From a virus (lineage: Duplodnaviria; Heunggongvirae; Uroviricota; Caudoviricetes), in IMG/VR virus record IMGVR_UViG_2541047437_000023: a DNA stretch of 5,118 nucleotides; one strand, given 5' to 3'. The notes beneath the pieces are model-generated. The model worked only from the letters and a program-made list of their open reading frames with translations, was not told where the DNA came from and searched no databases. Below are positions 1,530 to 2,052 of this stretch, in pieces (the first letter of the stretch is position 1; the number at the start of each line of letters is the position of its first letter). The position numbers and the translations under genes are program-made.

Positions 1530-1847
1530 CACCACACTTATCTGCCCTGACTCTCTTTTGCGGGCTTTTTATTACAGGAAAGACACCGGACAGTGAAATG
1601 TTAAATGCCTCACAATTCAGGCAGTTGACTGTTGCCTGACATGCTGAGCGTTTGTTAAAAAAATCCTGCATGATGAATCCCCCTGAGCGGCGGGGCATAA
1701 TGACAGATGTTTGGTTGCGTATTGTATAGGCAAGTTGCGGATTCTGTCTGGTCATTGCAGAATTCACCGGGAGGCACCCGGCATCATGCTGTATACAGAG
1801 ATTAGGCATATATCCAGGCTTCTCATCGCAGGAGCCTTTTTACATGC

Positions 1848-1873
1848 AAAAAAAAGCCCGAGTGGGTTCGGGC
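1848..1873 (-). terminator. Intrinsic-terminator-like hairpin oriented for the minus strand
   Basis: GCCCGA (1856-1861) / TCGGGC (1868-1873) form a 6-bp GC-rich stem with a 6-nt loop. On the + strand it is preceded by eight A (1848-1855), so on the - strand the hairpin is followed by UUUUUUUU. There is no T-tract after it on the + strand. Confidence 0.4.
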
Positions 1874-1933
1874 AACAGCATGAGATACTTGCATTGTCAT
1901 TTTTATCGTGTGGATTTTAACCAGGGTTTATAA

Positions 1934-1964
1934 GGCTGCGCAACTGCGCGGCCTTTTTCGTTTT
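1934..1964 (+). terminator. Rho-independent terminator upstream of nanS-p
   Basis: GGCTGCGC (1934-1941) / GCGCGGCC (1946-1953) give an 8-bp stem (one G-U pair) with loop AACT, followed by TTTTTCGTTTT (1954-1964). Located about 90 nt upstream of the nanS-p start codon. Confidence 0.55.
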
Positions 1965-2052
1965 GCGGGCTGCGGTTCTCCTCTTTTGATTCTCCTTGTG
2001 GCCGGACCGTGGCCCGCAACTGTTGAGGAAAATCCCGGAAAGGGGAGGAATA

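Follow-up and report, generated by a model that had tools for sequence, protein, structure and literature searches.

We analysed a 5,118-nucleotide stretch of DNA from a Caudoviricetes record in IMG/VR (the window), in which 523 bp separate the end of tRNA-Arg(UCU) at position 1529 from the start of nanS-p at 2053. The original prediction had put this interval at about 520 bp, which is correct, and had described it as a gene-free spacer at the place where Stx phages carry stxAB. About 270 of the 523 bp are two small RNA (sRNA) genes, and most of the remainder is flanking signals. We are confident that the interval is the right-hand "moron" region of a Sakai Sp9-type prophage, and that it consists of a decayed tRNA trailer, an empty slot, a convergent pair of sRNA genes, a third terminator, and the leader of nanS-p.

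Positions 1-2145 are 99.95% identical to an E. coli O157:H7 prophage that adjoins ompW, positions 1250-2100 are 100% identical to many O157:H7 chromosomes, and the locus lies within the annotated prophage Sp9 of Sakai (old coordinates about 1774240-1774700). Across the whole window, the best match is strain PV15-279 (99.9% identity), not Sakai; beyond about 2145, the window departs from Sakai and from TR01, whose nanS-p genes are shortened or disrupted. In our reading, the region follows PR', the late promoter of a lambdoid prophage that is integrated next to ompW. In RefSeq, positions 1530-2052 carry no annotated feature in 30 identical O157 records, and since all of the O157 records examined are blank here, a reader sees spacer.

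On the left, the interval is bordered by three tRNA sequences on the plus strand: a tRNA with a CAU anticodon (1297-1372; ileZ in Sakai Sp9, labelled as Met by ARAGORN), a decayed argN pseudogene (1376-1450), and argO, which is the tRNA-Arg(UCU) identified by ARAGORN (1453-1529). The argN pseudogene has a 12-nt deletion relative to the tRNA-Arg(UCG) of Stx2a phage L002 (1958-2034 in that phage) and gave no ARAGORN call. Positions 1530-1572 (+) align with the trailer of the tRNA cluster in Stx2a and other phages. The trailer hairpin of these relatives (GGCTCGC-TTTT-GCGGGCC and a T-run) is reduced here to a 4-bp stem, and the trailer has no significant fold (z = +0.32). We read it as a tRNA-cluster trailer whose terminator has decayed. 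On the right, the 5' untranslated region of nanS-p (1966-2052, +) aligns with the esterase start of phage 75/02 and includes the Shine-Dalgarno sequence GGGGAGG at 2041-2047. The nanS-p gene itself (2053-3990, +) encodes a 645-amino-acid sialate O-acetylesterase of the SASA family. The window as a whole is enriched in terminator-like sites (14, versus 5.1 +/- 2.1 in shuffled sequences), and the three that rank highest are all inside 1530-2052.

Two convergent sRNA genes

An Rfam scan of the interval gave two families, which contradicts the description of the interval as gene-free. The first is STnc100 (RF02076) on the plus strand at 1639-1847, with a score of 175.2 bits (threshold 47, E = 6e-41) that covers model positions 1-206 of 206. 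This is EcOnc28 of Sakai Sp9: the EcOnc28 half of a published RNase E-CLASH read matches window positions 1705-1766 (+) exactly. The RNA has its own intrinsic terminator, with a stem at 1816-1837 (+), a T-run from 1838, and a folding energy of -10.6 kcal/mol. The original prediction had missed this terminator. The fold of the whole STnc100 region is no better than that of shuffled sequences (z = -0.83); the evidence for an STnc100-family RNA comes from the covariance model and from the published reads instead.

Homologues of this RNA are well represented in the literature. EcOnc27/sRNA103 of the Stx2 phage is a homologue that occupies the same position downstream of stx2B. Northern blots of the Sp5 homologue gave sizes of about 235 and 247 nt, which are above the 206 nt of the Rfam model. 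In EDL933, 11 expressed copies of STnc100 were found by RNA-seq counts, with a northern blot for one copy. A common origin of the STnc100 RNAs and the EPEC sRNA PasD has been proposed, and the proposed targets fimZ and stxB are candidates. Relative to the STnc100 copies of Stx1 and Stx2a phages, the centre of the window's copy (about 1700-1760) is highly diverged, with indels.

Just upstream of the STnc100 match lies a conserved leader, TTAAATGCCTCACAATTCAGGCAGTTGACTGTTGCC (1599-1638, +), which is kept in Stx1, Stx2a, and empty-slot relatives. By its position and conservation, it is likely to be the promoter or the 5' region of the STnc100-family RNA. A consensus promoter scan near the start of the RNA reported just a weak promoter-like site at 1636-1664. 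A promoter that is both canonical and conserved was not found for this RNA, and inspection of the sequence gave several weak candidates. These include CACAAT at 1611-1616 (weak); TTGACT at 1622-1627, with no usable -10 hexamer at 17-nt spacing; and TGTTAAAAA, a weak extended -10.

The second Rfam family is AgvB (RF02702), at 1849-1908 on the minus strand, with 56.6 bits against a gathering threshold of 56 and model positions 1-62. The RNA at this place is EcOnc03 (1848-1908, -), a member of the AgvB/AsxR "anti-sRNA" family that depends on Hfq and measures only about 51-56 nt. It consists of a variable 5' region, GAUAAAAAUGACAAUGCAAG, and a conserved core, GUAUCUCAUGCUGUUGCCC; its seed is GACAAUGCAA. 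Its terminator has a stem at 1873-1856 followed by a U-run at 1855-1848 (8 T), so the minus-oriented hairpin that had been predicted at 1848-1873 is real and is the terminator of EcOnc03. The RNA folds with -13.9 kcal/mol (z = -2.2) into a terminal hairpin and U-run. The published 51-nt EcOnc03 (PMC4104026 Fig. S4) is identical, base for base, to window positions 1852-1902 (-); a CLASH read of this RNA (there EcOnc3) matches 1864-1907 (-) exactly; and the 3' core is identical to the published family alignment. The family comprises RNAs of 51-60 nt that end in a Rho-independent terminator, and their 5' region of 14-18 nt varies from member to member: among 125 loci we distinguished four seed classes, and the window belongs to the EcOnc03 class.

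Much is already known about this RNA. Tree and colleagues found it by Hfq crosslinking (Hfq-CRAC), northern blot, and 5' RACE, and it ranked third in abundance among the unannotated sRNAs bound to Hfq (Tree et al. 2014, PMC4104026). They reported northern bands of 56, about 54, and 51 nt and several triphosphate 5' ends, and the identical Sakai EcOnc03 has an Hfq-CRAC peak and is destabilised in an hfq deletion (PMC4104026 Table S2). Pairs of convergent sRNAs like this one have been described in at least 8 Sakai prophages, where they occupy the "moron" site, and a review (PMC7873438) is in line with this account. The suggestion that the interval encodes a small structured RNA rather than a protein was thus correct and had already been published (Tree et al. 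2014, PMC4104026). We also considered HnrS, a prophage sRNA that was described recently and occurs in multiple copies, including one in Sp9, and rejected it, as its core sequence is absent from the window.

EcOnc03 and the STnc100-family RNA are convergent, with their terminators back to back at 1816-1873, and this layout is common to the Stx1, Stx2a, and Sp10 loci. We interpret 1599-1908 as a pair of convergent genes for Hfq-binding sRNAs (EcOnc28 of about 200 nt on the plus strand, and EcOnc03 of 51-56 nt on the minus strand), each of which would end at its own intrinsic terminator. Both RNAs were recovered in RNase E crosslinking reads, and their identity, strand, and ends are shown here or in the literature, with an approximate start for the STnc100-family RNA. 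The convergent pair and the published data on it are known already, and our findings leave the known picture of the system unchanged. Their value is mainly corrective, as they place two abundant Hfq-bound regulatory RNAs in a stretch that is annotated as blank.

It is therefore highly improbable that the interval is truly gene-free, a vacant moron site between two terminators that makes no product itself. The 30 identical RefSeq records do lack any protein-coding annotation here, and there is a real empty slot at 1573-1598. But both Rfam families exceed their gathering scores, and the sequence exactly matches RNAs that were detected by Hfq-CRAC, northern blot, 5' RACE, and RNase E-CLASH. These published transcripts refute a gene-free reading for 1599-1965. 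Nor do the two hairpins of the original prediction bracket a spacer: one of them ends EcOnc03 and the other sits upstream of the EcOnc03 promoter.

We give as little credence to a small protein encoded in the interval. The open reading frames of at least 30 amino acids include two on the plus strand: a 69-amino-acid frame at 1711-1920, which spans both sRNAs, and a 32-amino-acid frame at 1707-1805. Ribosome profiling of EDL933 did show footprints on several STnc100 copies, with a coverage value of 1.73 for a 209-nt copy. However, neither frame has a Shine-Dalgarno sequence, and the longer one begins with TTG. The shorter one lies in a stretch with indels of 13, 4, 2, and 1 nt between relatives; both frames run across this most variable stretch, where the 13-nt, 4-nt, and 1-nt indels relative to Stx1 and Stx2a phages break the frame. 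We dropped protein coding as an explanation because none of the interval's frames is annotated in RefSeq or frame-conserved across relatives, which agrees with the original statement that 1530-2052 holds no protein gene.

Relatives and possible partners of EcOnc03

The closest relative of the minus-strand RNA is EcOnc03 of Sakai Sp9 (Tree et al. 2014, Mol Cell 55:199; PMC4104026). Its RNA gene does not differ from that of the window, and it shares the strand, the type of prophage (adjoining ompW), and the place between the tRNAs and a nanS-p homologue. AgvB (EcOnc01, RF02702), the anti-GcvB sponge of Sp10 and Sp17, shares with the window RNA the family, the convergent arrangement, the promoter block, and the conserved 3' part of about 42 nt (GUAUCUCAUGCU.UUGCCCGAACCCA.UCGGGC and a U-run). 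In contrast, the 5' region of AgvB is CGAUAACACAACAAUAUCA, with the GcvB-target mimic CACAACA, while the window has GAUAAAAAUGACAAUGCAAG. The mimic of the GcvB R1 target is absent from EcOnc03; within the window, CACAACA occurs just once, at 4670-4676 (-), a long way from the sRNA. Because of this difference, the Rfam label "AgvB" is a family-level match and not evidence for anti-GcvB activity.

AsxR (EcOnc02, RF02703), which is anti-FnrS, lies 282 bp downstream of stx2AB and antisense to it in Sp5/933W-type phages. It shares with EcOnc03 the 3' core and the placement with respect to nanS-p and the STnc100-family partner, and has a different 5' region, CGAUUAUUAAAACGA. The window scored 46.8 bits with the AsxR model, below the gathering score of 63, and the true AsxR of Stx2a phage L002 scored 88.1.

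EcOnc03 may act like AgvB and AsxR. Its conserved 3' part would provide stability and the terminator, and its variable 5' end (about 20 nt) would base-pair with a host RNA. For AgvB and AsxR, mapping placed the Hfq site at ARN motifs within the variable 5' region, and these motifs were recognised in EcOnc03 too. Members of the family retune host metabolism: AgvB lifts the repression exerted by GcvB and promotes growth in bovine rectal mucus, and AsxR increases the haem oxygenase ChuS. EcOnc03 is one of the most abundant members. The partner of EcOnc03 could be a core sRNA, which would be sponged, or mRNAs, which would be regulated directly.

We searched for seed duplexes with 22 core sRNAs of K-12. 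The two controls came first (AgvB-GcvB at -17.7 and AsxR-FnrS at -10.4). For EcOnc03, SgrS, McaS, the R1 region of GcvB, and MicC were all within 3 kcal/mol, and shuffled seeds did as well 73% of the time. This shuffle test of duplex scores gave no significance for EcOnc03, AgvB, or AsxR (0.11 for AgvB). When full-length EcOnc03 was cofolded, GcvB ranked first (-9.6), but the AsxR-FnrS control fails in cofolding. An uninterrupted run of 12 pairs, of which 4 are G-U, is possible between EcOnc03 and nt 73-84 of GcvB. The published CLASH hybrids of EcOnc03 are mostly with mRNAs, and several of them are formed through the conserved core, not through the variable 5' end, which suggests that sponging may not be the main mode of EcOnc03.

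A predicted plus-strand terminator at the putative EcOnc03 promoter

The plus-oriented terminator that had been predicted at 1934-1964 appears as a hairpin with its stem at 1932-1955 and a T-rich tail to 1965. The predicted structure is AAGGCUGCGC-AACU-GCGCGGCCUU, followed by UUUCGUUUUG (1932-1965, +); the stem has 10 pairs, 7 of them G-C, around a 4-nt loop. The hairpin has a folding energy of -18.8 kcal/mol (z = -2.87), and the terminator is almost invariant in 120 related phage contigs. It would act as a plus-strand terminator that lies over the -35 region of the EcOnc03 promoter. We place this putative promoter at 1909-1943 (-), with a -10 of TAAAAT at 1919-1914, six nt upstream of the 5' G at 1907, and a weak -35 of TTGCGC at 1943-1938, at a spacing of 18 nt. 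The promoter scan did not report it at the threshold that was used.

The overlap raises the question of which function has kept the hairpin. It could be conserved as part of the EcOnc03 promoter, either as the -35 or as a palindrome that binds a regulator, and not as a plus-strand terminator; we consider this possible, if rather doubtful. The putative -35 is within the hairpin and is separated by 18 nt from a good -10, and everything between the -10 and the hairpin, both included, is kept in all four seed classes. Furthermore, no two-sided compensatory changes were found in the hairpin among its 8 distinct variants, and shuffles equal the observed count (6 pairs are invariant and 2 vary on one side only). 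Given this and the overlap with the -35, the conservation of the hairpin could reflect promoter function. Three other features speak against a purely promoter-based explanation. The T-run follows the hairpin on the plus strand only; the hairpin is 4 kcal/mol more stable as plus-strand RNA (-18.8) than as minus-strand RNA (-14.8); and 3 of the 10 pairs either are G-U or turn into G-U, a pairing that exists on the plus strand alone, so that variants with C changed to T in the 3' arm still pair there. In any case, the two roles are not mutually exclusive.

As a plus-strand terminator, 1932-1965 would insulate nanS-p and the lysis genes from Q-independent read-through. More generally, we propose that the three terminators let the sRNA pair be expressed independently in the lysogen and stop transcription by polymerase that is not modified by Q short of nanS-p and the lysis genes. 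In lytic growth, Q-modified polymerase would pass through all three.

The cargo slot and its right border

In the Stx2a phage, the gene order is tRNAs, stx2A, stx2B, a sequence homologous to our interval, and nanS-p, so the interval does correspond to the position of stxAB in the sense of the order tRNAs-stx2AB-nanS-p. The original prediction had proposed an alignment to Stx phages. In our alignment, window positions 1598-2052 are colinear with the stxB-to-nanS-p interval of both Stx1 and Stx2a phages. What differs lies to the left, between conserved flanks that end at about 1572 and resume at about 1598; in relatives, alternative cargos or none are found between them. Judging from these junctions, the position of stx is a joint of about 26 nt at about 1573-1598, not the whole interval. 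In the window, this slot is empty and holds a filler of about 26 nt, TACAGGAAAGACACCGGACAGTGAAA (no strand assigned).

We read the classes of the slot from 120 related IMG/VR phage contigs, and its occupancy also from Sakai Sp10. The cargos at this joint are stx2AB, a 143-amino-acid TerB/TciA-like protein, or none, and the sizes of the joint are discrete: -4 to -2 nt (clean empty), 26 nt (this window), 51, 293, or 464 nt, about 690 nt with the TerB/TciA-like gene, 1233-1346 nt with the TerB-like gene and extra sequence, and 1328 nt with stx2AB. In Stx1 phages, stx1AB is just upstream of the same right edge (in phage 75/02, stx1B ends about 40 nt upstream of it). An unoccupied moron site, which had been one of the two proposals for the interval, is thus present at about 1573-1598 according to these size classes, although the rest of the interval is not spacer. 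At a single narrow joint, stx, TerB-like genes, and the lack of any cargo replace one another, immediately to the left of a fixed module of sRNAs and terminators, and the mapping of this joint should be useful for comparing variants of toxin phages or for inferring the loss of stx.

The other proposal was that the interval is a scar of lost cargo. In its present form, this proposal holds that the slot of an ancestor contained stx or a TerB-like gene and that the 26-nt filler is what remained after its loss; we think this unlikely. A cleaner joint without filler exists in 14 contigs, where the T-run of the tRNA terminator directly abuts AAATGT. Stx1 phage 75/02 has the EcOnc03 gene, its promoter, and the plus-strand terminator with 100% identity to this locus, and to the eye there is a loose resemblance of the filler to what follows the TerB-like gene of contig L016 and to the 51-nt filler of contig L106. 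However, local alignment of 1566-1612 to the cargo flanks of L016, L019, L106, and 75/02 stops at the shared edge AAATGTTAAAT, which is all that the filler has in common with the flanks of relatives' cargo. BLAST homology to Stx phages begins only at 1596-1610, the 26-nt filler is too short to be assigned, and insertion into an ancestral empty site fits the data equally well.

The sequence of the sRNA pair is kept with or without stx, and it lies 3' of stxB in Stx1 and Stx2 phages. Because it also follows stxB in toxin phages, it is not a remnant of the absence of stx. Lambdoid "moron" cassettes are described as autonomous units with their own promoter and terminator that lie in the late operon downstream of PR' and are expressed from the prophage (Juhala et al. 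2000, as cited in PMC4104026). Like them, the slot here varies by the presence or absence of cargos at one joint. Unlike them, the sRNA pair does not come and go as cargo: it forms a constant part of the right-hand border, both when the slot is occupied and when it is empty.

Speculatively, the three terminators might form a joint barrier at the right border of the slot, and EcOnc03 might be an additional, weaker sponge of the R1 seed of GcvB; we would not expect this combined reading to hold. If it were true, the barrier would keep transcription of the toxin, of TerB, or of the tRNAs in the lysogen off nanS-p and the lysis genes, and it would answer why the sRNA pair always sits there, which the field has called "unclear."

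The type of minus-strand sRNA goes with the content of the slot. Among contigs with a readable slot, AsxR accompanies stx2AB in 14 of 14, and EcOnc03 accompanies the empty 26-nt slot in 13 of 14. EcOnc03 is also found downstream of stx1AB in Stx1 phage 75/02.

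Two convergent sRNA genes between the tRNA cluster and nanS-p

The original prediction treated window 1530-2052 as a gene-free spacer at the position of stxAB. The chief value of our analysis is that it corrects this description and narrows the cargo slot to about 1573-1598. To the left of the interval (523 bp) are a gene for a DNA methylase (198-1256, +), a tRNA whose anticodon is CAU (1297-1372, +), a decayed tRNA (1376-1450, +), and tRNA-Arg(UCU) (1453-1529, +). It is followed by nanS-p (2053-3990, +; a sialate O-acetylesterase gene), by small ORFs and a holin gene (+), and by the first part of a YdfR-family gene (from 4923, +). 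Many chromosomes of E. coli O157:H7 are 100% identical to window 1250-2100. The match in strain TR01 is within a lambdoid prophage that is integrated beside ompW, and the match in strain Sakai is within the annotated prophage Sp9, flanked by argO3 and ECs_1781. The whole window shares 99.9% identity with strain PV15-279.

A scan with Rfam found two families above their gathering scores: a full-length STnc100 at 1639-1847 (+) (175.2 bits, gathering score 47, E = 6e-41) and an AgvB-family match at 1849-1908 (-) (56.6 bits, gathering score 56). The absence of a credible ORF was borne out, as RefSeq annotates none in the interval and the ORFs run across indels that break the frame between relatives.

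The gene on the plus strand falls in the STnc100 family, for which a link to the EPEC sRNA PasD was recently proposed. It corresponds to EcOnc28, as a published CLASH read matches window 1705-1766. EcOnc28 is a homologue of EcOnc27/sRNA103, whose gene is 3' of stx2B. The STnc100 part is a mosaic: its 3' half is nearer to the Stx2a copy, while its centre is unlike the copies from Stx2a phage or from the Stx1 phage 75/02.

The minus-strand gene belongs to the AgvB/AsxR/EcOnc03 family and is EcOnc03 itself. The EcOnc03 sequence that Tree et al. 2014 (PMC4104026) give in their Fig. S4 agrees with window 1852-1902 (-) in every letter, and window 1864-1907 (-) agrees with an "EcOnc3" read from RNase E-CLASH. 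We rejected AgvB proper because we looked for its defining motif, CACAACA, and it is absent from EcOnc03. We rejected AsxR proper because that model scored below its threshold at 1849-1908 (-) (46.8 vs. 63).

Tree and colleagues assigned EcOnc03 to Sp9 and reported northern bands of 56, ~54, and 51 nt, multiple 5' ends bearing a triphosphate, and a loss of stability without Hfq; of the Hfq-bound RNAs in Sakai that lacked annotation, EcOnc03 was one of the most abundant (PMC4104026). They also described, in Sp3, 4, 5, 9, 10, 11, 15, and 17, convergent pairs of sRNAs that lie between the moron position 3' of PR' and a conserved phage ORF (PMC4104026). Given the sequence identity and this architecture, our finding is a rediscovery of a published locus. 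A later review states that the reason for the convergent arrangement is unclear (PMC7873438).

Three terminators and the putative EcOnc03 promoter

The window has 14 terminator-like sites, compared to 5.1 +/- 2.1 in shuffled sequences, and the top three are all within the interval. Both of the hairpins that were originally predicted are present at the positions given. The minus-strand hairpin (stem 1873-1856, followed by eight T) is the terminator of EcOnc03. The plus-strand hairpin (stem 1932-1955; ten pairs, then a T-rich tail) has a folding energy of -18.8 kcal/mol as RNA (z = -2.9). The remaining terminator, at 1816-1837 (+), was not in the original prediction; it ends the STnc100 RNA and forms a back-to-back pair with the EcOnc03 terminator, about 18 nt away.

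The 5' end of EcOnc03 is a G at 1907. Reading from the sequence, there is a good putative -10 box (TAAAAT, 1919-1914) and, with an 18-nt spacer, a weak putative -35 box (TTGCGC, 1943-1938), which lies inside the plus-strand hairpin. This promoter block and the hairpin are almost invariant across 120 related contigs from IMG/VR and all four classes of anti-sRNA 5' ends. The few hairpin variants carry C-to-T substitutions in the 3' arm, which preserve pairing (as G-U) on the plus strand only, and as plus-strand RNA the hairpin is more stable by 4 kcal/mol than as minus-strand RNA. Nevertheless, we saw no two-sided compensatory changes among the variants of related contigs, so the hairpin's conservation could equally serve the promoter. 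Thus, the terminator at 1932-1965 may be an insulator, a promoter element, or both. Most plausibly, by the logic common to lambdoid late operons and morons, the three terminators would permit expression of the sRNA pair in the prophage and would stop Q-independent transcripts short of nanS-p and the lysis genes.

Proposed action and candidate targets of EcOnc03

Published data for RNAs of identical sequence show that the two sRNAs are expressed and turn up among RNase E crosslinking reads, and that EcOnc03 is bound by Hfq and depends on it for stability. By analogy to its siblings, the conserved 3' part of EcOnc03 would provide stability and the terminator, and the variable 5' end would pair with host RNA. 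In the siblings, Hfq binding was mapped to ARN motifs of the 5' variable region, and these motifs were recognised in EcOnc03 as well (PMC4104026). AgvB imitates the GcvB target motif and AsxR pairs with the terminator loop of FnrS (PMC4104026), but EcOnc03 has neither the CACAACA mimic nor the AsxR feature for pairing with that loop.

Published CLASH data for EcOnc3 include seven hybrids in the coding region of ompC (ECs3104, which we assigned via the start-codon sequence of neighbouring hybrid reads) and an enrichment of cation-transport mRNAs (mntH, fieF, bfr). ECs4425 is a common target of EcOnc3, AgvB1, and AsxR, via a conserved GUAUCUCAUGC core. When we searched 22 core sRNAs for pairing ourselves, duplex energy picked out both positive controls. 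For EcOnc03 no partner stood out clearly, as SgrS, McaS, the R1 region of GcvB, and MicC all fell within a range of 3 kcal/mol; shuffled seeds did no worse than the EcOnc03 seed in 73% of cases.

The four 5'-end classes are AgvB, EcOnc03, AsxR, and a fourth (CGAUUAUAAAAAUGUAUAUC...; CGAUUAUAAAAAUGUAUAUCUCAUGCUGUUGCCCGAACCCACUCGGGC) at 23 of 125 loci (such as L007, L016, L029, and L035 from IMG/VR, oriented as the window). We found no name for this class in the papers that we consulted, and the pairing search gave no convincing partner.

The cargo slot and neighbouring features

We projected both flanks of the slot onto the 120 contigs and measured the gap. The left flank, at 1530-1572, consists of the tRNA trailer and aligns with that of the Stx2a phage; the trailer's terminator hairpin is intact in that phage and degraded in the window. 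The right flank, from about 1598, is colinear with Stx1 and Stx2a phages up to the start of nanS-p; its counterpart in phage 75/02 starts about 40 nt past stx1B, and that in the Stx2a phage about 45 nt past stx2B. The gaps fell into discrete classes: a clean empty joint (-4 to -2 nt), 26 nt (the window), 51, 293, and 464 nt, ~690 nt (a 143-aa TerB/TciA-like gene), 1233-1346 nt (such a gene plus extra sequence), and 1328 nt (stx2AB). Thus, the predicted unoccupied insertion site exists, with a width of about 26 nt rather than 520. Our comparisons did not establish that this 26-nt filler derives from cargo that was lost.

The class of the anti-sRNA seed tracks the cargo. AsxR accompanies stx2AB (14/14 contigs), EcOnc03 accompanies the 26-nt slot (13 of the 14 contigs with a readable slot), and AgvB accompanies TerB-like cargo or the clean joint. 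The fourth class is found with clean-empty, 51-nt, 464-nt, and TerB-like slots. EcOnc03 is also found 3' of stx1AB in the Shigella sonnei phage 75/02, where its gene, promoter, and plus-strand terminator (L003 ~3733-3937) are identical to those at window 1848-2052 of the stx-negative O157 prophage.

The TerB/TciA-like gene (ECs_1959 in Sakai Sp10, L005; about 25 IMG/VR loci) is the commonest cargo at the stx2AB slot. TerB-like and Stx2 cargos have their first bases 3' of the tRNA terminator in common ((G/A)TATCTGCG...), which suggests that cargos may be swapped as cassettes with a shared left end.

The middle tRNA of the ileZ-argN-argO cluster, argN (1376-1450, +), is a pseudogene that ARAGORN does not call. 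Compared to tRNA-Arg(UCG) of the Stx2a phage (L002 1958-2034), it has substitutions and a 12-nt deletion over the anticodon region. Only ileZ and argO are annotated in Sp9, and likewise in Sp10.

The nanS-p gene is intact in the window (645 aa), is split into two pseudogene fragments in TR01 (L001 20804-21624), and in Sp9 (L004 2836-4689) has diverged and is shorter, at 618 aa. Identity to TR01 and Sp9 falls sharply past ~2145, which implies a recombination breakpoint just inside the 5' end of nanS-p.

Another published Hfq-bound sRNA, EcOnc33, lies directly downstream of nanS-p (~3996-4090, -). Its northern probe (PMC4104026) matches window 4044-4078, half of a CLASH read matches 4056-4076 (-), and the region has a long minus-strand hairpin, GCCGCCGG...CCGGCGGCC, followed by seven T (~4041-3996). 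The Stx2a phage has a sub-threshold match to Esr41 at this position (L002 5879-5955, 35 bits vs. 102). Finally, a strong terminator at 34-51 (+), GCCTTCAGTCCTGAAGGC followed by six T, lies at the end of a small ORF 5' of the methylase gene (ECs_1779 in Sakai), downstream of the gene for the Q antiterminator.
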